Positions 40,754 through 56,936 of a DNA stretch of 64,000 bases are shown in pieces. Source of the DNA: Minisyncoccota bacterium. Its GTDB lineage: Bacteria; Patescibacteriota; Minisyncoccia; Phycocordibacterales; UBA6065. Under the pieces are notes generated by a model. It did not search any database, was not told where the DNA came from, and was given only the letters and a program-made list of their open reading frames with translations. Every line of letters starts with the position of its first letter. Position 1 is the stretch's first letter. Made by a program: the position numbers and the translations under genes. Location of the stretch: assembly GCA_041661645.1 (NCBI GenBank), contig JBAZUA010000003.1:22841-86840 (forward strand). Reading direction: 5' to 3'.

Positions 40754-40781
40754 GTTCTAACAACCTCCACCACGGCACCCA
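40754..40781 (+). repeat. 28-nt intergenic repeat copy A (GTTCTAACAACCTCCACCACGGCACCCA)
   Basis: Immediately after def terminator hairpin, 33 nt before next start. Confidence 0.8.
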
Positions 40782-40813
40782 ACGAGTTGACGGATCACCG
40801 TAATTAGCCCATC

Positions 40814-41374
40814 ATGCTTTCTATGAACTTTGCAATACCTGTAAGAGATGGCCTAGAGCTTCGCTTGAGGTCAGAAACGGATGCCGAGGCTTTCTTTGGG
40901 CTCACGGACAAGAATCGTGGCTATCTTAGGCGTTGGCTTCCATGGGTTGACGCCACCGTCACAGTCGAGGACACTCGAAAATACATCCGATCGGTTATCG
41001 AAAGGTTTGAGAAACGAGAAGGCATCGACCTGGGGATCTGGTATGACGGTCAGTGGGTCGGCTCGATAGGTTTTCACTATTGGGATAAGTCCAACAGGAA
41101 AGATACCGTCGGATACTGGCTCGCCGAAGATTTTCAGGGCAAAGGCATCATTACGGATGCGGTCCGTGCTCTTGTTGCGTATGGTTTTCAGACCATGGAC
41201 CTGAATCGCATCGAGATTCTTTGCGCGGTCGAGAACGCCAGAAGCCGTGCGGTTCCAGAACGGCTCGGGTTCAAGAACGAGGGCGTGACCCGGGAGTGCG
41301 AGTGGCTTTATGACCACTTCGTAGACCCAGTTACCTACAGCCTCCTTCGAAGCGAGTGGAAACCGAACAGATAG
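40814..41374 (+). CDS. GNAT family N-acetyltransferase (RimJ/RimL-like)
   Basis: GNAT motifs A/B (QGKGIITDAVRALVAYGF, RAVPERLGFKNEG). Confidence 0.8.
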   Translation: MLSMNFAIPVRDGLELRLRSETDAEAFFGLTDKNRGYLRRWLPWVDATVTVEDTRKYIRSVIERFEKREGIDLGIWYDGQWVGSIGFHYWDKSNRKDTVGYWLAEDFQGKGIITDAVRALVAYGFQTMDLNRIEILCAVENARSRAVPERLGFKNEGVTRECEWLYDHFVDPVTYSLLRSEWKPNR

Positions 41375-41428
41375 TTCAGACCTGCATAGCGAGAAATTGT
41401 TGTGCGGGCTTTTTATTTGCTTAAAGCG

Positions 41429-41456
41429 GTTCTAACAACCTCCACCACGGCACCCA
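41429..41456 (+). repeat. 28-nt intergenic repeat copy B (exact consensus)
   Basis: Preceded by ctttttatttgcttaaag; shares about 60 nt with copy E. Confidence 0.8.
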
Positions 41457-41517
41457 TTTAAGGATTTTCTTAAAAACGGCCTTATTTAGAGGGCTGTTTT
41501 TAGTTCTAACCAAGCTA

Positions 41518-41546
41518 TTGACAAATATAGATATAGGATATATAAT
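41518..41546 (+). promoter_or_regulatory. consensus sigma70 promoter TTGACA-17-TATAAT
   Basis: Perfect hexamers, 17-nt spacer, about 140 nt upstream of 41685 ORF. Confidence 0.6.
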
Positions 41547-41684
41547 ATAAAAAGATAGAACGTTGAATTGCTTCCATATAGTCATAGCCAAAAGGCCTTG
41601 AAATTCGAGGTTTCCTGGCTATGACTAACACTAGTCCTAGTATGTTCATCTATTAGGTGGGCATAAACATCAACTATCAGTTGT

Positions 41685-42125
41685 TTGGAGGACACTACAA
41701 TGGGCAAATATGGAAAAATTAACCTCGATAGCATCGAAGCTGTGATTAACAAGCTTGGCGGAGAAAAAGGGATTGAACTTTTTCTGACGAATAGCACTAT
41801 GGTTGTTCACCGCTCAATCCTTCGGTCGTGGAAAGATGGGCAACTCCCCGAGGAGCTCGTCAAAGTGAAGCTTGCCGACATCGGTGTTCAGTCGGAGCTG
41901 TTCACAGGTGAGGTCGCTAAACTCGCTGAAGGTTGTGGCTTGGAGCTGGCCATAAGCGAAGATCTCAATGTGTTCCAGTATCAGCCTTTCGGTGTAAAGA
42001 TGCTCGTCTACAATGGAGAAAAAAGCTACCGCTATTTCGAAAAGCACGAGCATGGCAGCAGCACGCAGAGCGCCGATCTGCTACGGTTCGGACCCGATGA
42101 CGAATTCTACTTCTTCAAGAAGTAA
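41685..42125 (+). CDS. hypothetical protein
   Basis: 146-aa ORF downstream of consensus promoter. Confidence 0.5.
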   Translation: MEDTTMGKYGKINLDSIEAVINKLGGEKGIELFLTNSTMVVHRSILRSWKDGQLPEELVKVKLADIGVQSELFTGEVAKLAEGCGLELAISEDLNVFQYQPFGVKMLVYNGEKSYRYFEKHEHGSSTQSADLLRFGPDDEFYFFKK

Positions 42126-42237
42126 GCCGCTCTGAGGATACAGCGTTCAACCTCAACCCCGTACCAAAAGTGCGGGGTTAAATTTTTACATGAACTTAGG
42201 AATATGAACGGCGTTGTCATCCAATCTCTCAAAAGTA

Positions 42238-42265
42238 GTTCTAACATCCTCTGCGACGGCATCCC
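42238..42265 (+). repeat. 28-nt repeat copy H (GTTCTAACATCCTCTGCGACGGCATCCC, degenerate)
   Basis: 21/28 match to consensus; upstream of 42340 ORF. Confidence 0.6.
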
Positions 42266-42339
42266 TCGATGTTATAAAAGCCTTGATTCAACTGGCTATC
42301 TAAGGCGAGAGGGAATTGAACTTGTGATATGATTTTGAC

Positions 42340-42855
42340 ATGGATAGATTACCTACAAATGAGCACGAACCAAGAATGGTCGACCTGTTCAGTCTTGAGA
42401 TGGAAGAAAAATTGAAAACCGAAGGAAAGATATATCACAGGAAAATCGAATCGATACGAGGCGCTGAGCAAGCTACGAGACCTCAGACGATAGAGACTCA
42501 TTTGCCCGATGGGACCCTTGAATCAACCGTTGATGCAAAGGAGGGAGAATGGATAATCACTGGATCTAAGGGGGAGAGGTTCGTGTTCAGTCAGAAGAAA
42601 TTTGACGGGCTCTATGACTCTGATGGAAAGGGAGGATTTGTACCCAAGGAGAGAAGGGTGTTTGCCATGGCCAACTCGTCTGGTGGGGCGGTGAGAATAT
42701 ATGCACCATGGGGCACGTCCGAAAAGCCGGCATATCAAGATGGCAGTGGAAAATGCTTCTTTGTCGCCTCGCTCGATGAAAGTGGAAACTTTACGAGTGA
42801 CAGGTATATCATTGGGGACGAAGAGTTGCTTTTGAGTAATTACGAGCCTGTTTAG
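42340..42855 (+). CDS. hypothetical protein
   Basis: 171-aa ORF. Confidence 0.5.
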   Translation: MDRLPTNEHEPRMVDLFSLEMEEKLKTEGKIYHRKIESIRGAEQATRPQTIETHLPDGTLESTVDAKEGEWIITGSKGERFVFSQKKFDGLYDSDGKGGFVPKERRVFAMANSSGGAVRIYAPWGTSEKPAYQDGSGKCFFVASLDESGNFTSDRYIIGDEELLLSNYEPV

Positions 42856-43000
42856 GGGCTGAATATGAGCTCTGTTTAGTAGGAAACAGCCTTGTTTTTT
42901 AGGTGTCATATAAGAGTTGCAAATAAAGGGATCGGGTATAGTATCCAATAAAGGAAAATGAAGCACCCCGCTTCATAAACAGACAGGACCTTAAAAACAT

Positions 43001-43492
43001 ATGAAACTCATGAAGAAAGCGAACCCGAGGAGGCCTTTTTATGATGCGGTCTGGCCAGATTGGTGGCATCACCACGGGAGCAAGATACAGGTCGAGGGGC
43101 GAGACGGAAACATCCTCACCCTCTCTGGTAGCGCGGCAAGACTGAGAATCATAAAGACTCCCAATGGAGGGGGTAACAGATTCATCATCGACTACGAGAT
43201 ACAGCACAGTGCCGACGGAAAGACGGCAAGGACTGTTCCCATGACACGAAATGAGCTCATGGCGGCCTTCCGCCTATCCGATAGGACGGGAGTCTTCGGG
43301 GACGGGCTCATTGAAAGATACGGGGCGGAATCGGCCCAACAGGGAGGATATATCCGGTGGGAAAAATTTCTCAACATACCGTGCCCCGGTACTGGCCATG
43401 ATGGCGACCCGAACATATCCCTCGAAGTGGACGAGCGGATACAGAAGGCGGTCAAAGACCTTCTCAAACGCAAGACCATCAGGGGCAAATGA
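43001..43492 (+). CDS. hypothetical protein
   Basis: 163-aa ORF. Confidence 0.5.
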   Translation: MKLMKKANPRRPFYDAVWPDWWHHHGSKIQVEGRDGNILTLSGSAARLRIIKTPNGGGNRFIIDYEIQHSADGKTARTVPMTRNELMAAFRLSDRTGVFGDGLIERYGAESAQQGGYIRWEKFLNIPCPGTGHDGDPNISLEVDERIQKAVKDLLKRKTIRGK

Positions 43493-43570
43493 AAGTCGGC
43501 CTCGGACAGACAAGCCGGACATCGAAAGGTGCCGGCTTTTTTATTTGAGAATAATACTATTATCGAGCGT

Positions 43571-43600
43571 GGCTCCAACAACCTCCACGACGGCACCCCA
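43571..43600 (+). repeat. repeat copy C (GGCTCCAACAACCTCCACGACGGCACCCCA)
   Basis: After terminator-like ggccggcttttttatttg; same ...CCTCCACGACGGCACCCCAAGAAA tail as copy I. Confidence 0.7.
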
Positions 43601-43644
43601 AGAAAAAGAGCTTGTGACGTATCGCTACGTCACAAGCCCTGTGT

Positions 43645-44754
43645 TTACTTTCGCAACTGTTCGATCGACCGTCTCAAGTTATTCCGGGCAGTACTTTCGT
43701 ACTTGTCTCGGAATAACTCTGTCGAGTAGATCGAAGGACGATCCAGAAAGGACTGGAGGATCTTAGATCGACCTGCGCAGAAGTCAGATTGTGGAACCCA
43801 CTCGTACTCCTTACGGATTCCGACTTCATACGCATCGAACTCCTTCTCTGGTTTTCCAAGGACCATGAGGTCAATGTCTACCAGAATCTGAGCGGCATGT
43901 TCAACCGGAACAGCTGTGTGCCTGGTGGCCACGACCAAATCATTGACCTGTTCACCCAACGAATCGGGCAAACCAATCTTTTTGATAGAGTCTTTAGCCA
44001 ACTTCGCACTCTGTTCCTCGTTATCCTTTGCTTTTTGGTCGTAGACGGCATCATGGAACCAGATTGCCAATGCAATGGCCAAATCGTTTTCGCCTGCCAG
44101 TTCGAGTTCATCGAGCGCGGCAACGATGTGGGCAATGTTGTGGTAGCCTCGATGAGGTTCACTATATCGTGTCAGGAGATCTTTCAGGACCGTTTCCGAT
44201 CCTTTGGGATTTCCCAATGCCGACATGAGTGTTGCCCAGTACTTCTGGGCCTTCCCAAGAATGAATTTCTCCTTGAGCTTGGTTACAACTGCCGCAGGCA
44301 CTGAGCGAGCCACTTGGCACTCCCACTCGGGATCGATTCCGACGTGGCCCTTTACCATGCTTGAACTCACATGCATGAGGTTCGGCAGGCAAGGGACCCA
44401 GACGGTTTCGATCTGTGGGCAGATCCTACGATTTTCTTCGGCCAGCGTCTGCTCGTCCTCGAGGTCTTTGAAGTTTCGCAGACCCCGGACGATGACTTGA
44501 GCGCCGATAGATTCGGCTTGCTTCACGACGTAATGGCCGATGCACACATCAACTGAAACATTCGGAAGCTGTGCTACAGCCGCCTTCGTCATACCCACTC
44601 GCTCCTCGGGAGTGAATGCGTACGTTTTTCGGGAATCCACCGCCACGAGAACGATGAGTTCGTCGTAGAGTGGTGCCATTCGTTCGATGACATTGATGTG
44701 ACCGTTGGTGATTGGATCAAGGCTTGCTGCATATACTGCTTTTCGTGCTTTCAT
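43645..44754 (-). CDS. coaD: phosphopantetheine adenylyltransferase (CoaD) fused to C-terminal HD-domain phosphohydrolase
   Basis: N-term SLDPITNGHINVIERM (PPAT HxGH-like); C-term YHNIAHIV...WFHDAVYD HD motifs. Confidence 0.7.
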   Translation of the reverse strand: MKARKAVYAASLDPITNGHINVIERMAPLYDELIVLVAVDSRKTYAFTPEERVGMTKAAVAQLPNVSVDVCIGHYVVKQAESIGAQVIVRGLRNFKDLEDEQTLAEENRRICPQIETVWVPCLPNLMHVSSSMVKGHVGIDPEWECQVARSVPAAVVTKLKEKFILGKAQKYWATLMSALGNPKGSETVLKDLLTRYSEPHRGYHNIAHIVAALDELELAGENDLAIALAIWFHDAVYDQKAKDNEEQSAKLAKDSIKKIGLPDSLGEQVNDLVVATRHTAVPVEHAAQILVDIDLMVLGKPEKEFDAYEVGIRKEYEWVPQSDFCAGRSKILQSFLDRPSIYSTELFRDKYESTARNNLRRSIEQLRK

Positions 44755-45353
44755 GACTGAACTCCTTTCTGTTGTTTGAGGTTGTGATAGAGATCGCTCA
44801 CTCTATCTTCGAGTTGGTTCAAGCTACAGTCTGTGTGAATCACGAACTGAGCCCGCTGTTCTTTTACCGACGATGGAAGTTGCTGATCAAGTCTGGCTTG
44901 TATCTGAACATCGTCCGTATGTCGGTTGTCTCGCAGTCTTCGAAACTGTTCGTGAGGATTGCAGGTCGCCACAATGATCGCGGCAAACTTGCCTTCACTG
45001 CCTGTTTCAAAAATGATAGCTGATTCCACTACGCAGATTTTGCTATCACCGGCCGAAGCAACTCTTTCATCTACAGTTGCCCAGACCAGAGGATGGATCA
45101 GAGTCTCAAGCAGCCTTTTCTTTTCAGGTTTCTCGAAGATGATCCTTGCAATTGTCTGGAAGTCTGCCTTTTCGTCCAGGAAGACGTTTGTGCCTAAGAT
45201 CGTATTGATTTGTTGTCTGTGGTCGTTGCCCGAGATAATCTCTTTCGCAATACGATCACAGTCTAGAATCAGTACATCCGGGAACTTTCCGAGTAGGGTA
45301 GCTATAGTGCTCTTGCCGCAGCCTATATTGCCCGTAAGTCCGAATGGCTTCAT
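44751..45353 (-). CDS. coaE: dephospho-CoA kinase
   Basis: GLTGNIGCGKST P-loop, CoaE-like. Confidence 0.8.
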   Translation of the reverse strand: MKPFGLTGNIGCGKSTIATLLGKFPDVLILDCDRIAKEIISGNDHRQQINTILGTNVFLDEKADFQTIARIIFEKPEKKRLLETLIHPLVWATVDERVASAGDSKICVVESAIIFETGSEGKFAAIIVATCNPHEQFRRLRDNRHTDDVQIQARLDQQLPSSVKEQRAQFVIHTDCSLNQLEDRVSDLYHNLKQQKGVQS

Positions 45354-45417
45354 AAGGTATCCTTTCTTTTCAAGGTTCTGTTCCGTGTCATCTTCGTCCT
45401 TTTGACAAATATAGTCA

Positions 45418-46212
45418 ATGGTGTATAATAACCGTTATACAAATATGCAAGAGCCACGAAAACACCTCATGGACCTCGGTTTAAGTGATTCAGAAGTCAC
45501 TGTTTATTTGGCTATGGTCTCAGGAGCTCGCACGGCTAGAGATCTCGTTAAAGTTACTCGCCTCAAAAGGCCAACTGTTTATTATGCGCTTGGCTGTTTA
45601 GAGAAACGAGGTCTAACCAGTAAGACGGGTCTGGCGGGTGATAAAAGCTTTTCACTTGAACCGATCGAGAAGTTGTCAGTCATTGCTAAAGAGAAGGCGT
45701 TGGAATTTTCTAAACTCCAGAATCACATCGATGAGATGATTCCTGCTTTGGCGGCAACATCATCTCCGGCCAACCAAAAACCAACGGTTGCTTTCTATGA
45801 GGGAGTAGATGCAGTGAAGAATGCGGTTATGGAAATGCTTTACTGCAAAAGTAAGCGAATTAATTCTGTCGTGCCTAAAGAAAACTTTTTCTGGCAGATC
45901 GGACAAGACTTTGTCGAACTCTTTATTGAGGAAAGAGTCAAAAGAAATATTAAAACCAAGAATCTTTGGGAGGTTCCTATAAACAAAGGACTTATAAAAC
46001 AATACTATGAAGGTCTTTCACAGGTTCGAATAGTACCAGAGATCATGCATGGGAAGTTCCAGACCACTATTTTCCTCTACGACAACAAGACGCTGTATGT
46101 ATCTTCAAAAAATAACAGTTACTGCGTTCTTATAACCTCTAAGGAACATACCGATACTATGCAGGCTTGGTTTGATGGGCTTTGGAGTATTTCAAAGGCT
46201 CACGACAGGTAA
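45418..46212 (+). CDS. TrmB family transcriptional regulator (second copy)
   Basis: wHTH TVYLAMVS...RPTVYYALGCLEKRGL, TrmB C-terminal domain. Confidence 0.65.
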   Translation: MVYNNRYTNMQEPRKHLMDLGLSDSEVTVYLAMVSGARTARDLVKVTRLKRPTVYYALGCLEKRGLTSKTGLAGDKSFSLEPIEKLSVIAKEKALEFSKLQNHIDEMIPALAATSSPANQKPTVAFYEGVDAVKNAVMEMLYCKSKRINSVVPKENFFWQIGQDFVELFIEERVKRNIKTKNLWEVPINKGLIKQYYEGLSQVRIVPEIMHGKFQTTIFLYDNKTLYVSSKNNSYCVLITSKEHTDTMQAWFDGLWSISKAHDR

Positions 46213-46291
46213 AAAGTTGAATTACGCTGAAACTGCCACACTTTGCATGTCAGGAATGTAGATCGTCGCATCATTCCTTTTCTCAAAAATA

Positions 46292-46319
46292 GTTCTAACT
46301 TTCTCTACGACGGCACCCA
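46292..46319 (+). repeat. repeat copy D (GTTCTAACTTTCTCTACGACGGCACCCA)
   Basis: 22/28 match to consensus. Confidence 0.65.
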
Positions 46320-46534
46320 ACGTAATAAGGAGGTTTAGGTGGGGAGAGTGATACGCTGTTCCGAATAGCTTGACAAAAACGAATTTAGTTGCAATATGAG
46401 CATTGCAAGCTCTTTAAATCTATTTGAAAGTAGCCCTCTGTACCCCGCGGATATAGGTGGCTGCTTTCAAAGAATTGGTTATCCAATTCACTCTAGGCAT
46501 TCCGCCAAAAGTTCTATGGCAGCAAGGAGAAACC

Positions 46535-47068
46535 ATGAAGAAGATAGTCAAAACTACTGTCCTCTGGAGATTCAGTCTGGCTCCAGTGGACATGCGGCAG
46601 GATAGACGGGTTTTCGTTCCATCACCTGATGGAAACCGTGCTCAGGATTTAATCCTGGGTGAGATTATTATCGAGTCCTTGTTCAAACCCCACCCGGCTG
46701 GAGGACGGTGCGTGTATGTGAGGGTCAACGGTATTCGTCCTGGCGGTAAAGAGGTATATACCGATCGATTCATTGGTGCGGGTAGAATGTCATGCGGTGT
46801 TTCGGAAAAACGCTATGTGAGCGAGGCCAGTGGCTTTTATTGGTCTTTACATCGCGGGGAGGAGTTCCTTGATGGCGCCCTGAGGATTGGTCAGTTGATA
46901 CTGGAAAAGCTTGGGGCAAAGTGCAAATCAGATTGGCTAACCCACGAGCGGGTGCTCGGCAACTTCACCATCACTCAAAGCACCTACGTTCTCATGAGTG
47001 GCCGTGTCTGGCGACCGATCGAATACTACCTATGTGTGAAAAATGGGTGGGAATGGACTGGTCCTTGA
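46535..47068 (+). CDS. hypothetical protein
   Basis: Start at MKKIVKTT with AGGAGA SD 5 nt upstream; longer ORF from 46457 less likely. Confidence 0.45.
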   Translation: MKKIVKTTVLWRFSLAPVDMRQDRRVFVPSPDGNRAQDLILGEIIIESLFKPHPAGGRCVYVRVNGIRPGGKEVYTDRFIGAGRMSCGVSEKRYVSEASGFYWSLHRGEEFLDGALRIGQLILEKLGAKCKSDWLTHERVLGNFTITQSTYVLMSGRVWRPIEYYLCVKNGWEWTGP

Positions 47069-47136
47069 ACTTCGCCGCCTCATCAATCAATCAGCCCGTC
47101 GCTTCACCGCGGCGGGCTTTTTATTTGCTTAAAACA

Positions 47137-47164
47137 GTTCTAACAACCTCCACCACGGCACCCA
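47137..47164 (+). repeat. repeat copy E (exact consensus)
   Basis: Preceded by terminator gcttcaccgcggcgggcttttt. Confidence 0.8.
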
Positions 47165-47233
47165 TTTAAGAATTTTTATAAATTAAGCTTTTGTGGCTTT
47201 GTATAATTAGTTCTAACCGAGTAGAATTTATAT

Positions 47234-47893
47234 ATGATATCTACACCAAAGAGATCCGAGCAATATGACGACATTGGTAACTCCTACATCTCTGAAAAAG
47301 ATAATTTTTTCAGTCAGATTAGCGATCCTGGCAAAGAGGCCATTCTTGATTTTCTAAGGGGTCAAAAAGATAAGGAGGGGGTTGATGTTGGTTGTGGGGG
47401 CGGGCAAGACACAAAAGCATATTTAAATACAGAAATAAAAAGCATCATCGGAGTTGACCCATCTGATGTAATGGTAAAAGAGGCTCAGAGACTATTGGGG
47501 AGTGACGGGGCTTTATTGGGCAGTTGGACTGATTTGCCGTTTTCAGATGATTCAAAAGACTTTCTGATTGGCAGATTCTCTTTGCATTATGTAGAGGATG
47601 TTTCTGCTGCGTATAAAGAAGGGGCTCGTGTATTAAGGCGAAAGGGAAAACTCATCATGATTCTGCCTGATCCAAAAGCAGACCCTGTTGTAATTGAAGG
47701 GGGAAAAGAGATGGTTAAGACCCCTATCTTTGGCGGCAAGGTGATAGTTACATATCCGAGACACAGAAAAGACGAATATTTTTCAGATACATTCAATAAC
47801 TTATTCAAGCTTATCAATGAAGAAGCATACGCAAGCCCTGAACGTAATTTAGGTTTCACAGATACTCTTATCGTTATTGCTGAAAAAAGGTAG
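47234..47893 (+). CDS. class I SAM-dependent methyltransferase
   Basis: Motif I VDVGCGGGQD; TATAAT at 47202 and GTTCTAACC box in leader. Confidence 0.75.
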   Translation: MISTPKRSEQYDDIGNSYISEKDNFFSQISDPGKEAILDFLRGQKDKEGVDVGCGGGQDTKAYLNTEIKSIIGVDPSDVMVKEAQRLLGSDGALLGSWTDLPFSDDSKDFLIGRFSLHYVEDVSAAYKEGARVLRRKGKLIMILPDPKADPVVIEGGKEMVKTPIFGGKVIVTYPRHRKDEYFSDTFNNLFKLINEEAYASPERNLGFTDTLIVIAEKR

Positions 47894-47943
47894 ATTAAAA
47901 TGTGGAAATACAAATTGTTCAATCATCCATTTTTTTAAACACA

Positions 47944-47971
47944 GTTCTAACAACCTTCACCACGGCACCCA
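47944..47971 (+). repeat. repeat copy F (GTTCTAACAACCTTCACCACGGCACCCA)
   Basis: 27/28 match to consensus. Confidence 0.8.
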
Positions 47972-48056
47972 ATTTATAATTAGCGGTCTCTAGCCCTTCA
48001 TTTAGGGAGTTAATATAAACCCTATTTCAGTGGGGAATGGCCTTGCTTCTTTAGTG

Positions 48057-48085
48057 TTGACAGATAGCTAATCTGGGTGTATAAT
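48057..48085 (+). promoter_or_regulatory. consensus sigma70 promoter TTGACA-17-TATAAT
   Basis: Perfect hexamers; about 90 nt upstream of 48177 ORF. Confidence 0.6.
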
Positions 48086-48699: not shown

Positions 48700-48822
48700 T
48701 CATGCAGGGAATGTTTATGGATGTGTTTATAAACATCCCTGACATTCGACCCAACATTAACTTTTTTCATTTGGTTTAATAACCACAAGGATTTTTCAGT
48801 TCTAACCTGGTAGACTTGATAT

Positions 48823-49728
48823 ATGAAAAATACACAAAATGGTTTTATTGTTCCATTTTCAATAGCCATTATTGGGGTATTGCTAGTAGGAGGGGGTGTT
48901 TATGTTTATCAAAAGAAAGCACCCCACCAACAAAACACGAAAGAAAATTCCGATACTGTGGTAGCAACATCTACTAAAACCAATGACGTTGGTGTGATAT
49001 CAACAAGTACAAAAAGCATGCCAAAAACGTCTTTGTCTCCAAAACCAAAATTCGATCCGTATGCACCAATGATCAGGCCTATCCCTGGTATCCACGGAAT
49101 GGAAACCGAAGATCTTACAAATCTTAAGTATCCCGATTGTTCAGCAGCGAGTACGCGCTCTGAGTATCACCCTGGACCAATTAATCTTACATCTAAAACT
49201 GGATTAATTGTTCAAGAGGAAAAGAATTACTATAACGTTAATGGTACAAATGAGTCACAGATATATTATGAGATATGGAATTGCACCATTCCAGTACGTG
49301 ATATGAATAATGGTGCCGACGCTATTACAGAAAGTTATTTAAATTACGATTTTAAATACGATACGATTAATAACAAGGTTTGCGGTATAAATAATGTAAC
49401 TGTTGGCGTCCATGTATCATATTTACTCCCTCGATGGATTTATGCGAAAGAGGCATCTGGGCCATTACTGAATATATGGAATACATATTTCGTTGCAATA
49501 CAAAAACATGAAGAACACCACGGTTCTATAGCGAAAGAATACGGCAACAAACTATATCTGTATCTGAGTGAATTATCTGCAAGTAAAGCTTGTGTGCCGT
49601 CTTTAGATTCAGTTGAGAGTAAGTTTAATGACACGATTAATGAACTTGATGCTGCCCAAGCGAAATACGATCTAGAGGTAGATCACGGAGTTAAGGAAGG
49701 CGTTTTTTCTCCTTTTGATAACATTTGA
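48823..49728 (+). CDS. membrane-anchored putative Zn-dependent protease (DUF922-like, HExxH)
   Basis: N-terminal TM; KHEEHHGSIAKEYG HExxH motif. Confidence 0.45.
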   Translation: MKNTQNGFIVPFSIAIIGVLLVGGGVYVYQKKAPHQQNTKENSDTVVATSTKTNDVGVISTSTKSMPKTSLSPKPKFDPYAPMIRPIPGIHGMETEDLTNLKYPDCSAASTRSEYHPGPINLTSKTGLIVQEEKNYYNVNGTNESQIYYEIWNCTIPVRDMNNGADAITESYLNYDFKYDTINNKVCGINNVTVGVHVSYLLPRWIYAKEASGPLLNIWNTYFVAIQKHEEHHGSIAKEYGNKLYLYLSELSASKACVPSLDSVESKFNDTINELDAAQAKYDLEVDHGVKEGVFSPFDNI

Positions 49729-49806
49729 TCTCGAGTCTGTGTGGTGAATTCGGGTATGATGAAATTAGGAATGAGAATCGTCACATCATCCTTCCTCTCA
49801 AACACG

Positions 49807-49832
49807 GTTCTAACATCCTCCACCACGGCACA
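49807..49832 (+). repeat. repeat copy G (GTTCTAACATCCTCCACCACGGCACA...)
   Basis: 24/26 match to consensus. Confidence 0.7.
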
Positions 49833-49860
49833 TCGATTTTGACTCTGTTATACTTCAGGC

Positions 49861-50479: not shown

Positions 50480-50926
50480 ATGCCTTCTCATCACCAAGTG
50501 AATATGTCTGAAACTAAAAATAGCCTTCGAGGCAAGACCTTCGCGGGTTTTGGTGCCGTTGCGCTTGTCGCCGCTCTGTTGTTTTTGGTAAGTAGTTTTA
50601 GCGGTCCATCATCTGGCTATAACACAACACTCGGTTCCCAAGAATTTATATCGAGATACAGGGCCACTCCGAACGCCGAGCTTGTGGATGTTCGAACTCC
50701 AGCTGAGTTTGATTCGGGGCACATTGCCGGAGCGGTTGACATTGATTTTGAGGGACCGGGTTTTGAGGCGGCGGTCAAAGCGCTTGATCGGTCAAAGACG
50801 TATTTCGTCTATTGTCATTCTGGAAATAGATCAGGAAAAGCGACGGCTGTCATGCGACAAGAGGGTATCGCCCACATATATCAGTTGCAGGGCGGCGTCG
50901 CTTCCGCTTCGGCGCTAGTACGATAA
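50480..50926 (+). CDS. rhodanese-like sulfurtransferase with N-terminal TM
   Basis: Active-site loop CHSGNRSG. Confidence 0.75.
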   Translation: MPSHHQVNMSETKNSLRGKTFAGFGAVALVAALLFLVSSFSGPSSGYNTTLGSQEFISRYRATPNAELVDVRTPAEFDSGHIAGAVDIDFEGPGFEAAVKALDRSKTYFVYCHSGNRSGKATAVMRQEGIAHIYQLQGGVASASALVR

Positions 50927-50930
50927 ACGC

Positions 50931-51254
50931 ATGCATATAAATGTTTGTATGAAAGAACAAATTAAACAAAACAAAGTAGAGTCGCTGGCAAAAAAGCTTT
51001 TGATTGCCGGAGACTCGACGAGGCTCAAGATCCTATGCGTTATTTTTGATGATAGGAAAGCGTGCGTGTCAGAGATAGCCAAGAGGCTTGATATGGGCGT
51101 CGCCATCGTGTCGCACCACCTGCAGTCTCTGGCAAAGGCGGGGTTTCTTGAATCAAATCGAGAGGGAAGGCAGATTTGCTACTCACTTCTCAGGTCACGG
51201 TTCAATAGCGACCTGAAGGAGTTTATCTGTCGAAATAAGCAGAAAAACACATGA
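50931..51254 (+). CDS. ArsR/SmtB family transcriptional regulator
   Basis: wHTH ...CVSEIAKRLDMGVAIVSHHLQSLAKAGFL. Confidence 0.7.
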   Translation: MHINVCMKEQIKQNKVESLAKKLLIAGDSTRLKILCVIFDDRKACVSEIAKRLDMGVAIVSHHLQSLAKAGFLESNREGRQICYSLLRSRFNSDLKEFICRNKQKNT

Positions 51255-51377
51255 ACGCGACAGGGGTGTCACAAGTTATGGGTCGCCGTCGGTGACAAGG
51301 GGCGGGCGGTAAAGATGGTCAGGGGGTGTCAGCCGGAAGGATTCAGAAAGTCACTATCAAAATAATTAACACAAAAT

Positions 51378-51707
51378 ATGTCCAAAGTCTTAAACATCAA
51401 TGCGGATCAATTCGAAAAAGAGGTGATTCAATCCAAAGTCCCTGTTCTTGTTGATTTTTGGGCGCCTTGGTGCACGCCGTGCAAGATGATGGGCCCGGTT
51501 CTTGACGAGGTGGCAAAAGATGTGGGGGAGAAGGCGGGGGTCATAAAAATCGACGTCAATGATTCGCAAAACATCGCCCTCGCCCAGATGTTTCAAATTA
51601 TGAGCATACCAAGCATGAAGATATTCAAAGGCGGTGAAGTCGTGGGGGAGTATGTCGGCATGAGGTCAAAAGAAGATCTCGTCGATGGGCTCAGGGAGAA
51701 TATGTAG
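51378..51707 (+). CDS. trxA: thioredoxin
   Basis: WAPWCTPCK active site, 109 aa. Confidence 0.85.
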   Translation: MSKVLNINADQFEKEVIQSKVPVLVDFWAPWCTPCKMMGPVLDEVAKDVGEKAGVIKIDVNDSQNIALAQMFQIMSIPSMKIFKGGEVVGEYVGMRSKEDLVDGLRENM

Positions 51708-51903
51708 GCTTAAGTGATGTTCCTTGGTGGGATAGAGGAATACGGCATGAACAAGTGAAATCGCGATAATCGAAGGCCGTTTCTGAGGAGAGATACCCCA
51801 AAGAGGCCAAGGAAAGAAAATACGCGCCCTCGTTGTATTAGGGGTGTGAGGGTTGAAAGATGTAAAAATCAATTTTTCCTTCGTAACTCTAAATAAAAAC
51901 AAA

Positions 51904-52290
51904 ATGAAAAAAATAACATTAGGACTAGGGATATCGGCGGCTATCTTGGGAGTGACGGCTGTCTCTGCTGGGTCCGCCCTCGCGTATAGAGGCGATCCTA
52001 CGGCACAGGGCCCAAATTATTCGACAGAGCGCCATTCTGCGATGGTGAGGGCGCTTGAGGCTGGTGACTACGGCGCCTGGAAGAGTCTCGTGCAAAATCG
52101 AGGTAGGGTTGCCCAAGTCATTACCAAGGGAGACTTTTCGAAGTTTGTGGAGGCACACAACCTTGCCCTGCAGGGTAAAACGCTTGAGGCTCAGAAGATT
52201 CGTCAGGGACTTGGATTGGGCCTGCAGAATGGTTCCGCAAGGACCAGCGGCGGCATGATGGGGCGGATGGGCGGGAATTTCAATCGTTAA
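51904..52290 (+). CDS. secreted hypothetical protein
   Basis: Signal peptide MKKITLGLGISAAILGVTAVSAGSALA; start chosen at internal Met of 51853 ORF. Confidence 0.45.
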   Translation: MKKITLGLGISAAILGVTAVSAGSALAYRGDPTAQGPNYSTERHSAMVRALEAGDYGAWKSLVQNRGRVAQVITKGDFSKFVEAHNLALQGKTLEAQKIRQGLGLGLQNGSARTSGGMMGRMGGNFNR

Positions 52291-52369
52291 TTGGAACGGG
52301 TCAATGGTCAAGCTCCGGCATTCGTCGGAGTTTGATGTACCCATGAGGGATGTGGGATAAAATACACGT

Positions 52370-52912
52370 ATGAGTGAGACCTTAAAGTTTACCGATGAAG
52401 AGATCGTCGAAAAAGTTCGCTCAGGTGATCGGGATCTCTATGCGATCATAATTGAGAGATATAAAGACAAGTTATTGAGATATGCGGCAAATATGCTGCG
52501 GGATAATGATAGGGCGGTTAATCTTGTCCAGGATTCCCTGGTAAAGGCATATATAAATCTCAATGGCTTTAATACCCAAAAGAAGTTTTCCAGCTGGATA
52601 TACCGCATCGTTCACAACGAGGCGATCAACTTGATAAAGAAGCGTCAAAAGGAAATACCGATACCGGACAGCTTTGACTTTGAAAGTGAACAGGATATTA
52701 CAAAAGAGTTTGAGGAGAAGGAGACGGCGATATATGTGGAGAAGTGTTTGGGTGCTATGCCGCTTATATATTCTGAGCCGTTGAGCTTATATTATTTAGA
52801 TGAGAAGTCCTACGCTGAAATAGGTGAGATTCTCAGGATTCCGATTGGTACGGTCGCGACAAGGATGAGCAGAGCGAAAAAATTAATGAAACACATATGT
52901 CAAAAGAATTAA
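52370..52912 (+). CDS. ECF-type RNA polymerase sigma factor
   Basis: Region 2 (LVQDSLVKAYINL) and region 4 HTH (EIGEILRIPIGTVATRMSRAKKL). Confidence 0.8.
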   Translation: MSETLKFTDEEIVEKVRSGDRDLYAIIIERYKDKLLRYAANMLRDNDRAVNLVQDSLVKAYINLNGFNTQKKFSSWIYRIVHNEAINLIKKRQKEIPIPDSFDFESEQDITKEFEEKETAIYVEKCLGAMPLIYSEPLSLYYLDEKSYAEIGEILRIPIGTVATRMSRAKKLMKHICQKN

Positions 52913-53403
52913 AAGACATCACGGACGATATCATGGGTCAGATCCACGACAGGAAGATAAAGATGCGTCCCAGAATGTGTTTCATTGCCGGTTCAATACT
53001 TACCTTTGTGGGACTTGTCTCCTCGGTTGTGGTTTCTGTTTTCCTGGTCGGGCTTATACGCTTCTCGCTCCGATCGCACGGGCCGATGGCTGGCTATAGA
53101 TTGAATCAGGTGCTTTTCAGTTTTCCGTGGTGGGCCCCTGCGCTCGCCCTTGTTGGGCTGGTTGTTGGGATATGGCTTCTTCGCAAGTACGATTTTTCTT
53201 TTAAGGTAAACTTCAGGGTTATAATCGCCGGATTTGTCTTGGCGGTAATTGCTGCTGGTTGGATCATTGATGGTATTGGCTTGAATGATCTCTTGGTACG
53301 GCGCGGCCCAATGCAGGGCATGATGCGGCAATATGTGCAGGATAATAATCCTCAAGGCATGCGAGGCGGTGGTCAAGGTTGGGGTACGAATAGGGGAAAT
53401 TGA
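52897..53403 (+). CDS. putative membrane anti-sigma factor
   Basis: 16-nt overlap with sigma gene; multi-TM protein. Confidence 0.45.
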   Translation: MSKELKDITDDIMGQIHDRKIKMRPRMCFIAGSILTFVGLVSSVVVSVFLVGLIRFSLRSHGPMAGYRLNQVLFSFPWWAPALALVGLVVGIWLLRKYDFSFKVNFRVIIAGFVLAVIAAGWIIDGIGLNDLLVRRGPMQGMMRQYVQDNNPQGMRGGGQGWGTNRGN

Positions 53404-53499
53404 TCTCAGTCGGGAATTGTCTGGGTACGGTGGATCGTGGTATGTCTACGTTAAAACCCAGTACCCGACCCAAAGGATTTTTTTGCTATACTCTGAATC

Positions 53500-55083
53500 A
53501 TGTCTTTGACCGAAGAATCGAAAATGTACCTCGTCGGCGGCGGCATCGCATCGTTGTCCGCGGCCGTGTATCTCATAAGGGATGCGAAGGTGAAAGGATC
53601 CAACATTCACATTCTGGAGGAGTCTCAGGGGATCGGTGGCAGCCTCGACGCCAAAGACCTTTCCTCGTCTGAGGGCTATTCGATGCGGGGAATCAGGATG
53701 TTTGAGGAAAAGACCTATAACTGCCTGTTCGACCTCATGGCGTCCATCCCGTCTCTCAATGCCCCGGGAAAGACTCTGCGACAGGAGTTTGTGGACTACA
53801 ACAGACAGAACAAGACCTACTCAAAGGCAAGGCTTCTCAGGGCCGGAAATGCAATCGACGGAAGACCCTTGGGGCTAAGTGCCGGGGATCGACTCAACCT
53901 CCTTGGCCTGGTCCTCAGGCGGGAGTCCTCTCTGGAGGGTATGGAGATAGGGCGATATTTCACCGCCTCCTTTTTCCGTTCCAATTTCTGGTATGAGTTC
54001 TGCACCGTGTTCGCGTTTCAGCCGTGGCACAGCCTGACGGAGTTCAGGAGATATCTTTTCCGATTCATTCAGGATTTCTCGAGCATCGACACTCTGAAGA
54101 GCATAGAGAGCTCGCCCTACAATCAGCACGAGTTTCTCGTGCTGCCGATCGTCGATTGGCTGAAGCGGGAGGGTGTGACGTTCGCGACCGGCACCAGGGT
54201 TACTGACCTTGAACTCATCTCGACTGCACATGAAAAGAGGGTGGGGTGCATTCATTACGAAAGAGAGGGAAAGGCGGGCAAGATCGCCCTTGGCGATGAT
54301 TTCGTGTTCGTGACCCTCGGCTCGCTCGTCGCGAATTCGAGCACGGGTTCGATGAGTGCGGCACCCTTGTCGAATCTCGACAGGAAGGATGCGTCGTGGG
54401 CCCTGTGGGAGAACCTCTCGAAGGGCCGACCCGAGTTCGGCAGGCCTTCCGTCTTCAGCGGCGACGTCGAGAAATCGACGTGGACATCCTTTACCGTCAC
54501 GTTTCGCGACCCGCTCTTTTTGGATCTCATGGACAGGTTCATCCACAGGGATGTGAATGCCTATGGGGGAGTGAACATCATTGACTCGAACTGGCTCATC
54601 TCCATCGTGCTGTCCTACAAGCCTTATTTTATCAATCAGCCGGAAGGCGTTAGTTTGTGCTGGGGCTACGGATTGCTTTCTGAGCAGAAGGGAAACTTTG
54701 TCCAAAAGAAAATGTTGGAATGCACCGGAAAAGAGATTCTCACCGAACTGCTGTGCCATCTTGGTTTTGAGGAGCACCTTGAGGCGATCATGAAGAGTGC
54801 CGTGTGCATTCCGTGCACGACCCCGTTCGTGACGAGCCTGTTTCTGCCCAGGAAGAGATCTGACAGGCCTTTGGTCGTGCCAGAGGGCGCCGCGAACTTC
54901 GCTTTTCTGGGCCAATACTGTGAGATCCCGCACGAGGTGGTGTTCACTGTCGAGCACTCCGTGCGCTCTGCCCAGATTGCCGTCTATTCGCTTCTTGGTC
55001 TGAATAAGAAGGTTGCCCCGATCTATAGGGGAGTCCGACACGTCAGCATCCTCTATCAGGCCATGAGAACCCTGCTTAGATAG
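53500..55083 (+). CDS. oleate hydratase (MCRA family, FAD-dependent)
   Basis: N-terminal MYLVGGGIASLSAAVYL FAD fold; overall MCRA-like 527 aa. Confidence 0.75.
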   Translation: MSLTEESKMYLVGGGIASLSAAVYLIRDAKVKGSNIHILEESQGIGGSLDAKDLSSSEGYSMRGIRMFEEKTYNCLFDLMASIPSLNAPGKTLRQEFVDYNRQNKTYSKARLLRAGNAIDGRPLGLSAGDRLNLLGLVLRRESSLEGMEIGRYFTASFFRSNFWYEFCTVFAFQPWHSLTEFRRYLFRFIQDFSSIDTLKSIESSPYNQHEFLVLPIVDWLKREGVTFATGTRVTDLELISTAHEKRVGCIHYEREGKAGKIALGDDFVFVTLGSLVANSSTGSMSAAPLSNLDRKDASWALWENLSKGRPEFGRPSVFSGDVEKSTWTSFTVTFRDPLFLDLMDRFIHRDVNAYGGVNIIDSNWLISIVLSYKPYFINQPEGVSLCWGYGLLSEQKGNFVQKKMLECTGKEILTELLCHLGFEEHLEAIMKSAVCIPCTTPFVTSLFLPRKRSDRPLVVPEGAANFAFLGQYCEIPHEVVFTVEHSVRSAQIAVYSLLGLNKKVAPIYRGVRHVSILYQAMRTLLR

Positions 55084-55150
55084 GGGGTCAGCGGGGAATG
55101 AAAAACAGCCCGCGCACTGGTTGTGTGCGGGCTGTTGCTGGTTTCACTTG

Positions 55151-55807
55151 CTAGTCGAGACGATGCAGTTCCGGGGCGACGATAGATTTGGCACTCTTGC
55201 CGTCCCACGATATGCGTCCGCACACCACGTGGTTGGTGATGATTGCCTGCCACTTGTGCTCGGCCCGGTTCACCTTCGCCGCGATGCTGTCGGGCGTGTC
55301 GTCGGGGAGTATCCGCACCTTCTTGCGAAAGAACACCCCGACCTCCGAGTCGTATTCGGACGTGACGAAATGCATCGTCACCCCCGTGTGGGTGATCTCG
55401 CCGCGTCTGTATGCCGCGATGACCGCCTCGTGGACATGATGCCCGTGGAATCCCTTGCCGCAGAACGGCGAGGGGATGAGGGCCGGATGGATGTTGAACG
55501 TCGTCCGGGGATCAAGTCCCTCGACCTGTCCGAGCCACCCCGAGAGCGCCACGAAGTCGGCCCGGGTCTCCTGGACGATTCGCCGGTAGTCCTCCGAGGT
55601 GCGACCCTTGGGGGAGTGGATGAACGGGATGCCGAACCTGTCCGCCCGCTTTCTGACCCCACCGTCCTGGTGGTTCGAGACTACTGCCACGATGGGCGAG
55701 CAAAGCATTCCGTTTTCTGTGGCGAGAACGAGCTTTTCGAAGCCCGATCCGCCGCCGTCCTGGCTTCCTGACGCGAACACGATCAGTCTGGGTGGTGTGC
55801 CTTGCAT
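55151..55807 (-). CDS. formyltransferase, PurN-like (phosphoribosylglycinamide formyltransferase family)
   Basis: NIHPALIP...GVTMHFVTSEYDSEVGV motifs; 218 aa. Confidence 0.7.
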   Translation of the reverse strand: MQGTPPRLIVFASGSQDGGGSGFEKLVLATENGMLCSPIVAVVSNHQDGGVRKRADRFGIPFIHSPKGRTSEDYRRIVQETRADFVALSGWLGQVEGLDPRTTFNIHPALIPSPFCGKGFHGHHVHEAVIAAYRRGEITHTGVTMHFVTSEYDSEVGVFFRKKVRILPDDTPDSIAAKVNRAEHKWQAIITNHVVCGRISWDGKSAKSIVAPELHRLD

Positions 55808-55871
55808 GGTATTGGGTGTGTTGAGGTTGCGATTCTCTGGTCAGACTAGCCGAAGAGGGCCTGAAAATCAA

Positions 55872-55914
55872 CAGGGCGAGGTGGGAGGAGATCAAGGGGT
55901 CGAAGTCTTGCTAG
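55872..55914 (+). repeat. orphan duplicate of def 3' end (cagggcgaggtgggaggagatcaaggggtcgaagtcttgctag)
   Basis: 39/43 identical to 40647-40689; not part of any intact ORF; followed by terminator like the original. Confidence 0.8.
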
Positions 55915-55939
55915 CGGGGAGGAGGGTATTTCAATTCAG

Positions 55940-55970
55940 GGTGCGTTTGTAAAACAACCGCACCTTTTTT
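55940..55970 (+). terminator. rho-independent terminator
   Basis: ggtgcgtttgtaaaacaaccgcacctttttt. Confidence 0.65.
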
Positions 55971-56186
55971 GTTTATTGATAACCAACCTGATGACCTGCG
56001 TAAGGGGACGGTACACTTGACATGCTTGTACTAATAACGCAGTATAATTTTGGAATTGCTTTGATTTGGCGGCTGGGACGGGGATGGTTCATCGAACGTT
56101 GAAATTGGTTGGAGAAGCAAGGGAACATCTCGGCAAACTGGCATGAAGTCAGTCCCGGAATTCGTCCTTTAACTCCAACTAATTCC

Positions 56187-56597
56187 ATGAATCTTAAGAA
56201 AAATTGGCCAATCATCCTGGTCTTCGTTCTATCAATCATCAATCTGATTCTGCCGTCGGGTCTCCCGCATGTGCAACTCTTTTTTGGAATGATTTTTGGC
56301 TTTCTGGTCGGCAGGGTTCTGAATGCTTGGCACCAGCGCAAGGAAAGCAGTTTCGATTTCCGTCGAGAAAAGACGCAAGAGCTTTTGTTCTTGTGCTCGG
56401 CGCAGTTCAGTCAGGTGATCGCGGAACTGCTGACGCTCGAGACGGCGTCGGGAGAGGGGGTTTTGGACGCTCGACACAAGAAGAGGGTTGGTATAGTCAT
56501 CGAGGACTACGATGCCTTCACTCATGCCCTGCGCGACAGTTCCGGTCTGCCCGAGGAGTTGAGGCATCTAGCCAAGGTGTTTCCGCGCAAGGTTTAG
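56187..56597 (+). CDS. hypothetical membrane protein
   Basis: Start at MNLKKNWPIILVF; terminator at 56619. Confidence 0.45.
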   Translation: MNLKKNWPIILVFVLSIINLILPSGLPHVQLFFGMIFGFLVGRVLNAWHQRKESSFDFRREKTQELLFLCSAQFSQVIAELLTLETASGEGVLDARHKKRVGIVIEDYDAFTHALRDSSGLPEELRHLAKVFPRKV

Positions 56598-56618
56598 CCT
56601 CAGCAGTTTCTGTCTTTC

Positions 56619-56647
56619 AAAGCCCCCGCCTTCCGCGGGGGCTTTTT
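56619..56647 (+). terminator. rho-independent terminator
   Basis: aaagcccccgccttccgcgggggcttttt. Confidence 0.7.
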
Positions 56648-56712
56648 ACTTGTCCTCAAGGGGACTCTCGTTGAGTTGACTGTTACATGTCGATGATGTA
56701 GTTTCAAAGAAA

Positions 56713-56883
56713 ATGACCTTAAAGAAAACATCTGACAGACAGCTTGTGGCGCTCCTTTGCTCGATGGTGACAAACGAGTCCAAGGATCCCGCGTTCTACG
56801 TCATACATAAAAAACTCGGACTTCGAAAAAAAGTCGAGAGTGAAATATTGAGGAAAATGCGCCAGGGCCAATCATGCAAGTGA
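56713..56883 (+). CDS. small hypothetical protein (56 aa; below ORF-track cutoff)
   Basis: ATG..TGA ORF followed by hairpin ggccaatcatgcaagtgattggcttttt and repeat copy I. Confidence 0.3.
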   Translation: MTLKKTSDRQLVALLCSMVTNESKDPAFYVIHKKLGLRKKVESEILRKMRQGQSCK

Positions 56884-56906
56884 TTGGCTTTTTATTTGCC
56901 CAAAGC

Positions 56907-56936
56907 GGTTCCGGCGTCCTCCACGACGGCACCCCA
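56907..56936 (+). repeat. repeat copy I (GGTTCCGGCGTCCTCCACGACGGCACCCCA)
   Basis: Shares ...CCTCCACGACGGCACCCCAAGAAA tail with copy C. Confidence 0.65.

Follow-up and report, generated by a model that had tools for sequence, protein, structure and literature searches.

What is the short sequence that recurs between the genes of a 16-kb stretch of a Patescibacteria genome, and what does it have to do with the series of unrelated genes that it separates? The window that we analysed is a stretch of 64,000 nt from a Minisyncoccota bacterium (contig JBAZUA010000003.1 of assembly GCA_041661645.1, positions 22,841 to 86,840), and its 28-nt repeat will be called T here. A first-pass annotation of this DNA had likened the region to a cassette array of unrelated, mostly co-directional genes, with T as a conserved recombination or regulatory site. 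That T is a component of recombination sites bounding cassette-like units found support in arrays linked to tRNA-His in related genomes and in the identity of T with the end of a large serine recombinase (LSR) gene. The minus-strand coding signal of T, the tRNA-His(GTG) gene at 39881-39952 (+ strand) that anchors the array, and the peptide deformylase gene def as the first unit had all been overlooked. Probably, T is the P-type half of the attP site of an LSR family of the candidate phyla radiation (CPR), and units that lack the LSR have accreted at the tRNA-His attachment site.

Regarding the copies themselves, a pattern search with up to three mismatches found three exact occurrences of the 28-mer GTTCTAACAACCTCCACCACGGCACCCA and one with a single mismatch in the window, where none was expected. 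Repeat finding gave a gapless family (D2) of nine + strand copies, whose cores lie at 40754-40781 (T1, matching the consensus at 28 of 28 positions), 41429-41456 (T2, 28), 42238-42265 (T3, 22), 43572-43599 (T4, 24), 46292-46319 (T5, 23), 47137-47164 (T6, 28), 47944-47971 (T7, 27), 49807-49834 (T8, 24) and 56908-56935 (T9, 21). A profile made from these nine and run over the full 64 kb gave no additional copy (best other E = 0.7), and the Pfam-scanned map of open reading frames (ORFs) places all of them between large ORFs. The first-pass annotation was thus right about the number, the strand, the intergenic placing and the 21-27 of 28 matches of the inexact copies, and nothing like T occurs elsewhere in the window. 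Seven of its positions were also exact, the other two (43571 and 56907) being one base off. It had moreover put the repeats typically just behind a terminator. A terminator-like hairpin with a T-run does lie immediately 5' of copies 2 (41381-41408), 6 (47093-47118) and 9 (56864-56891), as computed, and of copies 1 and 4, as judged by eye; in copies 3, 5, 7 and 8 the conserved unit instead reaches about 45 nt further left, with 61-72% identity (family D3). A decayed tenth T lies on the + strand behind a 43-nt fragment of a def 3'-end (91%). The stretch that holds both (about 55872-56010, or 55855-56030 at its widest; family D4) duplicates the end of def together with the terminator, a degenerate T and the beginning of the following unit, and it shows that a def-plus-T unit once lay further from tRNA-His.

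Read on the minus strand, the copies give GAVVE(V/D/K)VRT(V/I/T)F(E/S)(K/R)..., and the long ones run on as ..RNDATIYIPDMQSVAVSA up to a stop codon, differing from each other by conservative or synonymous changes. T1 reads GAVVEVVRTVFSK, T2 GAVVEVVRTALSK, T3 (42192-42265 with its 45-nt tail-coding extension) DAVAEDVRTTFERLDDNAVHIPKFM and T5 (whose module spans 46211-46325) GAVVEKVRTIFEKRNDATIYIPDMQSVAVSA, each followed by a stop. T8 with its extension (49760-49834) reads AVVEDVRTVFERKDDVTILIPNF.., and the extension of T7 (47895-47971) has one internal stop (..KKMDD, stop, TICISTF). On the 5' side of the conserved G of this strand there is no shared frame and stops are frequent. When one genome from each species was scanned with a degenerate form of the repeat, 61 loci came up, almost all of them from Patescibacteria (Saccharibacteria, Paceibacterota, Parcubacteria and others), and all read ..GAVVE(D/E)VRT(I/V)FE(R/K)RNDATIYIP..; three Devosia loci and one Polaribacter locus were chance matches in unrelated genes. 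Among 165 non-redundant T copies from genomes and metagenomes the tail frame is open for at least 24 codons in 149, and the codon-position entropy is 1.35 bits at the third position versus 0.89 and 0.76 at the first and second. Therefore, T evolves as coding DNA, though it is nearly always found without an attached gene.

The gene to which this tail belongs was found in the related genome and metagenome loci that we fetched for comparison (labelled L with a number). In L028 an ORF of 556 aa with Resolvase, Recombinase and Zn-ribbon domains begins MEKALIYCRVSTEEQ and ends ..NLRGAVVEDVRTVFERINDTTIYIPELQPVEFV, the repeat peptide being its in-frame end, and an LSR ORF ends in the repeat in L066-L070, L088, L159 and L175 as well. 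The 755 database homologues of the L028 protein carry Pfam Resolvase, Recombinase and Zn_ribbon_recom, and those whose source is named all come from Patescibacteria. As far as sequence can tell, T is shown by this match to be the natural C-terminal tail of a Patescibacteria LSR, with attP lying inside the ORF of the LSR itself and T giving the first nine tail codons, G-A-V-V-E-x-V-R-T. We found no intact gene carrying the tail in the window, either with the profile or by tblastn with the LSR.

These results also bear on another explanation, namely that T is a functional element in its own right, either a minus-strand micro-ORF of 13-33 codons or a regulatory or anti-Shine-Dalgarno RNA element for the neighbouring genes. 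The coding-type conservation of the minus-strand frame could be read in this way, as could the CCTCC core on the + strand and the position of the repeats between a terminator and the next promoter. Nevertheless, the codon before the conserved G is often no start (TGG, AGG, GGG, CGA), the conservation begins abruptly at GGCACCC, and a 556-aa recombinase ends, in frame, with this very peptide. There is furthermore no Rfam match and no stable fold, and the copies stand behind terminators, so that transcription from the + strand would mostly miss them. The anti-Shine-Dalgarno-like CCTCCACC core of the first-pass annotation is more simply explained by the recombinase tail, in which the codons GTG GTG GAG G (V-V-E) are its reverse complement. 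We consider an independent function of the repeat very improbable.

How the tail comes to be parted from its gene can be seen from the C-termini of the LSR family, for which we compared the best 120 of the 755 homologues. These proteins part ways exactly after a conserved ..(R/W/L)G. The AVVEDVRT tail is retained in only 5 of the 120, whereas 51 read on past this junction into an antisense tRNA, for example as GAYRDSNPGWEFHKLQC or AYRDSNPGWEFHKLQC followed by a stop, which is antisense tRNA-His (verified on L062). Another 32 stop at the junction or one residue past it (GGT GCC TAG), which is the antisense of a ..CTAGGCACC acceptor end; one of those stopping at the junction is P0016, which is integrated at tRNA-His, as L064 shows. 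Most LSR homologues lie at the tRNA-His(GTG) 3'-end, with an ORF that extends into the antisense tRNA, and the LSR 3'-end overlaps tRNA-His(GTG) in L062-L065. In the L062 contig T lies 15.4 kb from the LSR, at the opposite end of a block that holds, besides the LSR, restriction-modification genes and a reverse transcriptase with Avd. Elements that are complete, about 10-15 kb long and end distally in T are seen in L062 together with L012, L139 and L146. The C-termini and the L062 layout therefore place attP inside the LSR ORF, where integration parts the tail half (T) from the rest of the gene (R), and the integrated form has the layout tRNA-His/R-LSR...cargo...T/flank. Full LSR elements integrate into the 3'-end of tRNA-His(GTG), probably by a crossover within a common GGCACCC; the LSR ORF is thereby split, the gene ending from then on in antisense tRNA and T staying at the far end of the element.

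The anatomy of the two sites can be compared with that of other serine integrases. The conservation of T breaks off sharply after GGCACC(C), to the right of which the information content is about 0, and tRNA-His ends in ..TAGGCACCC (in the window ..GAGTTCAATTCTCTCTAGGCACCCA, an attB-like or B-type half-site, "H"), GGCACCC being the core common to both. Counted from this core, T carries the motif GTTCTAAC at -26 to -19, and tRNA-His carries the T-loop motif GTTC(A/G)A(T/A)T (GTTCAATT/GTTCGAAT) at -21 to -14. The GTTC-type motif is thus 5 bp further out in T than in the tRNA, at about 16-23 and 11-18 respectively when counted from a centre between GGC and ACC. Rutherford et al. located the zinc-ribbon-domain motif of serine integrases at bp 16-24 in attP half-sites and at bp 11-19 in attB half-sites, that is, with a 5-bp shift (PMC3783163). 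Because the motif geometry matches this rule, T, as in T1, behaves as a P-type half-site and the tRNA end as a B-type half-site, and by analogy GTTCTAAC and the tRNA motif may be the contacts of the zinc-ribbon domain. The six complete T/R sites may have a dyad near GGC/ACC, where their complementarity peaks at 44% versus about 25% elsewhere, although six sites are few and coding, too, constrains the right arm. The idea that T is a fragment of a tRNA is partly right, the match to tRNA-His being limited to the last 7-8 nt of T (GGCACCCA).

Extra tRNA-His 3' halves (..TAGGCACCC) occur shortly past the tRNA, in direct orientation in L167 (at about 100-125) and L029 (about 150 nt past it), whereas those of L003, L036 and L058 are inverted. 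Earlier recombination may have left them behind, or they may belong to the right half of the native attB.

Is the association of T with tRNA-His general? The tRNA-His gene lies upstream of T and co-oriented with it in 17 of the 17 genome loci that hold both features, and the same order and orientation is found in 39 of 39 metagenome loci (56/56 in total). About 200 T copies were found over Saccharibacteria, Paceibacterota and related lineages, many loci having 2-4 of them, spaced about 0.5-3 kb apart and usually without an LSR. They delimit 125 units, from 249 nt up and mostly of 0.5-2.9 kb (median roughly 0.8 kb), whose cargo includes a second copy of def, acetyl- and methyltransferases, redox and metal genes, Fic proteins and reverse transcriptases. 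T copies gather in co-oriented arrays past tRNA-His, where they bound small units of diverse genes, and the window, with tRNA-His, def, an array and no recombinase, conforms to this. It shows synteny with the Paceibacterota loci L064 and L065 in its left part (RuvA/B, Mur ligase, Fpg, PilM, rplS and tRNA-Ser/Arg/Val/Leu/His). A generic dispersed repeat of the repetitive extragenic palindrome or bacterial interspersed mosaic element type, which had been named as the alternative to check, was discarded: T is not palindromic, is confined to 40.7-56.9 kb of the window and is tied to tRNA-His in the other genomes.

In the window the tRNA, identified by ARAGORN and Rfam, is followed by ten units that each have a T at the end. 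The array starts with unit 1 (39953-40753, + strand), which consists of def (40060-40689; Pfam Pep_deformylase, 1e-31) and its terminator and reaches to T1. The following units hold a GNAT acetyltransferase (unit 2), a 146-aa protein (3), two hypothetical proteins (4), a CTP-transferase-like protein, CoaE and TrmB (5), a 203-aa protein (6), a methyltransferase (7), and a 157-aa protein with DUF922 (8). Unit 9 is a block of 7 kb with GlpM, rhodanese, ArsR, thioredoxin, an extracytoplasmic function sigma factor, an oleate-hydratase-like MCRA, a formyltransferase domain and others, and includes the decayed tenth T; T9, the most distal and most diverged of the scored copies, is the last junction before the flank with a metallo-beta-lactamase-fold gene. 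The other units are mostly of 0.7-2.7 kb, and many have their own promoter and terminator. The GC content is 0.41-0.47 within 44-50 kb versus 0.50-0.57 in the flanking chromosome, which is consistent with a foreign origin of the middle units. We found no homologues of the window cassette proteins at E = 1e-8 in the first 70 fetched loci.

The cassette-sized, co-oriented and functionally unrelated units, each bounded by a conserved repeat and with no integrase nearby, would also be expected of a cluster of attC sites lacking integron integrases, in which the repeats would be attC sites for an IntI tyrosine recombinase encoded elsewhere. However, single-stranded DNA folds of the nine junctions gave z-scores from -1.0 to +1.5, except for one unrelated terminator, and showed no helix with the repeat, that is, no attC-like hairpin (z about 0 in 8 of 9). 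The repeat is instead the coding end of a serine recombinase gene, the anchor is tRNA-His and not intI/attI, and units have their own promoters. We give this explanation practically no credence, and the strict integron analogy of the first-pass annotation does not hold, the enzyme being an LSR and not IntI and many cassettes having their own promoter. The spacers had also been suggested as RNAs, and this check gave nothing: Rfam returned only tRNAs in the window and the repeat forms no stable fold. Template and variable repeats of a diversity-generating retroelement (DGR) and a dif/Xer site were discarded too, as the repeat has neither a dyad of its own nor adenine-specific variation.

Regarding the start of the units, a conserved 5' module stands behind the junction in 13 of 50 cases at tRNA-His and in 11 of 168 cases at T, in many genomes, T2 and T6 of the window among them. 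It opens with an arm of about 25 nt that resembles the 3' arm of the LSR (..TTTTCTTAAAATA.. versus ..GTTTCTTAATATAAC in LSR genes), followed by (A)ATGACTTTT and, at a fixed 44-46 nt from the junction, CAGTTCTAACC; then comes TGATA(G/T)ACT, with an ATG 8-10 nt later. The ORFs behind the module are unrelated. After T2 the module (41457-41546, + strand) has the LSR-3'-end-like arm CATTTAAGGATTTTCTTAAAA, the box TAGTTCTAACC at 41501-41511, 46 nt past the junction, and TTGACA-17-TATAAT at 41518-41546. After T6 (47165-47236, + strand) it has the arm, the box TAGTTCTAACC at 47208-47218, 45 nt past the junction, a -10-like GAGTAGAAT and the ATG of the methyltransferase at 47234. From its layout, the module is probably a promoter, with ATGACT as a -35-like element, a 17-nt spacer holding the box, and an extended -10, and the distance to the ATG suggests that there would be little or no leader. 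The short box AGTTCTAACC, which the first-pass annotation had noticed near three starts (41502, 47209 and 48798) and assigned to a promoter or leader region, is indeed found at these positions and can now be read as the spacer of this predicted promoter module, about 45 nt past the junction. Perfect 12/12 sigma-70 promoters are three in the window, at 41518, 45402 (with a 16-nt spacer) and 48057, and not two as had been counted.

The promoter box module (CAGTTCTAACCTGrTAGACTT..ATATG) was also seen without a T or tRNA-His junction 45 nt upstream, at 48797-48825 of the window (CAGTTCTAACCTGGTAGACTTGATAT-ATG on the + strand, ahead of the DUF922 ORF and with no T upstream) and at 5187-5235 of L056. 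This suggests internal unit boundaries whose T was lost.

How could the units have come to stand in tandem? Units without an integrase but with an att sequence lie in tandem at a tRNA used by LSRs, with ten T in the window and an LSR at the same tRNA in L062 and L064. We propose that they were stacked one after another by the site-specific insertion of new units, or of whole LSR elements, into the tRNA-His half-site and perhaps into T sites as well, whatever lies to the right. A resident or visiting LSR element, on which the window array would depend, would provide the recombinase in trans, and older units would be shoved distally, where they would decay, as T9 and T10 may have done; the divergence of T9 and the tenth copy, the largest of all, agrees with such an order of age. 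A crossover joining any pair of these direct repeats would release a circle with one T, able to re-insert at the tRNA-His site, and this release could be mediated by the LSR or by RecA across the T modules of 80-200 nt. The tail frame would be kept open because any LSR landing beside a T relies on it to complete its ORF.

Some of the related loci show what such insertions may have left. L159 has the order tRNA-His, a 1.4-kb unit and T/R-LSR, and L066 the order T, a 2.2-kb unit with MsrA/MsrB and T/R-LSR. In both loci, therefore, a unit was inserted between the tRNA and the resident LSR, and the T of the unit rebuilt the LSR tail. Furthermore, L167, L029, L054 and L124 have a homologous unit of 2.7 kb with a reverse-transcriptase gene at its end. 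It comes first after tRNA-His in L167 and L029, but second in the other two, where an extra 786-nt unit and T precede it, the flanks being otherwise unrelated. Judging from L159, L066 and the same unit at different positions of an array, an incoming element may be able to mobilise units in cis or in trans. Junctions can be alike where the ORFs are unlike, as between 41404-41474 and 47112-47182 of the window (93%) and in L022 (100%). Over about 90-109 nt the T5 module matches modules of Saccharibacteria at 91-95% identity, whereas the window itself is syntenic with Paceibacterota, and this likeness indicates horizontal spread. The best reading of the window units is that they are LSR-less mini-elements or cassettes; true mobility of single cassettes is a more tentative matter, and we regard it as possible but rather doubtful.

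A second kind of replaceable slot is present in Saccharibacteria, where L017 (4198-5840), L007 (2253-3817) and L070 (3311-5107, reverse) have common flanks with wholly different genes between them. The slot is bounded on the right by a conserved module of about 190 nt ending in T and on the left by '...AAAAATGGTA' (start codon and one codon), and this left bound is neither T nor the tRNA-His site.

Several results weigh against the accretion of the units by such insertions. LSR-like residues were found at the protein level to the right of only 1 of 80 junctions, and since the right flanks also have an information content of about 0, most units have no second half-site that can be recognised. 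The canonical reactions of LSRs are limited to attP with attB, or attL with attR when a directionality factor is present (PMC3783163), and the proposed insertions need non-canonical site pairs or the help of homologous recombination. The contigs of three other samples have the units of the window in unchanged order, the def unit being identical in these contigs (L071-L073), and the gain or loss of units between related copies of the region, which was to be looked for, was not seen among them. Neither tblastn with the LSR nor Pfam scans of the larger ORFs found an LSR or integrase in the window, which leaves an activity of the window array without support; this agrees with the integrase-free window of the first-pass annotation, which had suggested looking for a recombinase nearby outside it, and LSRs were found in related loci only. 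Regarding an episomal form, no contig with an intact T/R site has terminal overlaps, and there was neither a circular contig nor an excised junction. A phage origin was discarded, because the repeat pattern had 0 matches in 2.9 million viral contigs.

Part of this evidence would also be explained if each T were the scar of a full LSR element of 10-15 kb at tRNA-His that had lost the LSR and most of its cargo by deletion. The units would then resemble cis-mobilizable elements (CIMEs) at best and would never have moved singly, and the array would be inert. Full elements with a far-end T do exist, most right flanks have no half-site-like sequence, the distal copies T9 and T10 are decayed, and no polymorphism was seen between strains; integration, decay and reintegration are moreover a documented route to tandems for other integrative elements (PMC5704250), which is one more point against insertion of single units. 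However, decay alone does not readily explain why the unit sizes cluster tightly at about 0.5-1.3 kb, with one gene each and no broad spread, nor why unrelated ORFs are framed by conserved 5' modules and a conserved 3' T. The T cores are near-identical and the tail frames are open in about 90% of the LSR-less copies, and every round would again need an element to integrate at tRNA-His after this site has ceased to be a canonical attB. Decay as the only process is thus unlikely in our opinion, and we keep to the accretion of LSR-less units.

Compared with known LSR attachment systems (Listeria A118/LI, Bxb1, phiC31), the present one has the same Resolvase/Recombinase/Zn-ribbon architecture, a short common core, the 5-bp motif shift (PMC3783163) and perhaps a weak dyad. 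It differs in that attP lies in the recombinase's own ORF, so that integration swaps the C-terminus, in that the target is the tRNA-His 3'-end, and in that the elements are not recognisable phages. Furthermore, P-type half-sites pile up in long tandem arrays without a recombinase, which a rule of attP x attB alone does not predict. With the SCCmec and ECC cassette chromosomes (LSRs of the CcrAB type, rlmH 3'-end) it shares variable cargo at the 3'-end of a conserved gene, bounding direct repeats and recombinase-less remnants by the target (PMC6222049). SCCmec uses rlmH and a CcrA/CcrB pair and is 10-60 kb long, whereas here the target is a tRNA, the recombinase is a single LSR, the repeat is the end of the recombinase gene and not of the host target, and the units are mostly of a single gene and about 1 kb. 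SCC elements form composite islands.

Integrase-less elements bearing att sites and lying in tandem at the integration site, where an incomer can capture them, are known among integrative and conjugative or mobilizable elements and their CIMEs (PMC5704250), and this fits the array as well as L159 and L066. Nevertheless, the described cases involve tyrosine recombinases, for which an identical core suffices to re-integrate, and large conjugative or mobilizable elements, whereas here there are up to ten 1-kb units, and no conjugation genes were seen. Integrons have in common with this system a fixed anchor, co-oriented small units of unrelated genes each ending in a conserved site, and the homogeneity of sites within an array (T1 = T2 = T6; L022). 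They differ by their tyrosine enzyme and by the folded single-stranded attC, the anchor here being a tRNA and many units having their own promoter and terminator. Mycobacteriophages, whose integrase in this case is a tyrosine recombinase, show an integration-dependent truncation in which attP lies in the repressor gene and integration alters its C-terminus; here it is the recombinase's own gene that is split and not a repressor.

We found no prior description of this system in the open-access literature, and neither recombinases nor tRNA-linked islands are mentioned in a survey of horizontal transfer in Patescibacteria published recently (PMC12455944). As far as can be told, the attP in the LSR's own ORF with a conserved 22-residue tail, the phylum-wide tRNA-His anchor, the arrays of up to ten units of about 1 kb with P-type ends and the promoter module at many unit starts are apparently undescribed, and there is a substantial chance that this is a distinct, integron-like system. 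A stronger proposal, which we advance only as a speculation that may well fail, is a serine-recombinase analogue of the integron in Patescibacteria. In it tRNA-His would be the fixed insertion site, T with or without the LSR-end-like arm would be the cassette site, single-gene cassettes with their own promoters, and with hardly any leader or none, would be inserted, excised and shuffled by a recombinase acting in trans, and the LSR C-terminus, rewritten according to the neighbouring site (T tail versus antisense tRNA), would act as a built-in sensor of the integration state.

The genomes of CPR/Patescibacteria are tiny and their gain of accessory genes is poorly understood, and the tRNA-His locus appears to be a widespread fixed site of acquisition. 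If the units do move singly, this would be a second, independently evolved cassette-array system, based on a serine instead of a tyrosine recombinase. For genome engineering it would be of interest that attP lies within the recombinase's own coding sequence and that the targets apparently need one well-defined half-site, versus the strict attP x attB of current serine integrases.

We also made some minor observations in and around the array. In the leader of the cassette ORF at 41685-42125 there is an inverted repeat (41579-41627) with 24-nt arms (GTCATAGCCAAAAGG...CTGGCTATGAC TAAC) and no Rfam match. It is kept in the leaders of homologous ORFs (..EAV[IV]NKLGG..) in L167 (about 300-350) and L054 (about 3050-3100), which belong in those genomes to the 2.7-kb cassette ending in a reverse-transcriptase gene, and it may be a leader RNA or part of a DGR-type cassette. 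Just before the tRNA-His anchor, in the rplS-tRNA-Leu gap, lies a free-standing LAGLIDADG_3 homing-endonuclease-like ORF (39042-39749), which L071 has too. Another reverse-transcriptase ORF (25583-26608; RVT_1, 9e-21) stands amid housekeeping genes and could be part of a retron, a DGR or a group II intron; reverse transcriptases are found in related LSR elements and cassettes, too (L062, L066, L008, L054). Finally, the tRNA at 15317-15390, beside a DUF3800 gene (15466-16107), has the anticodon TTA, which would read the stop codon UAA (ARAGORN "tRNA-Stop"; Rfam tRNA, 68.8 bits); it may be a suppressor tRNA or its anticodon may be mis-assigned.

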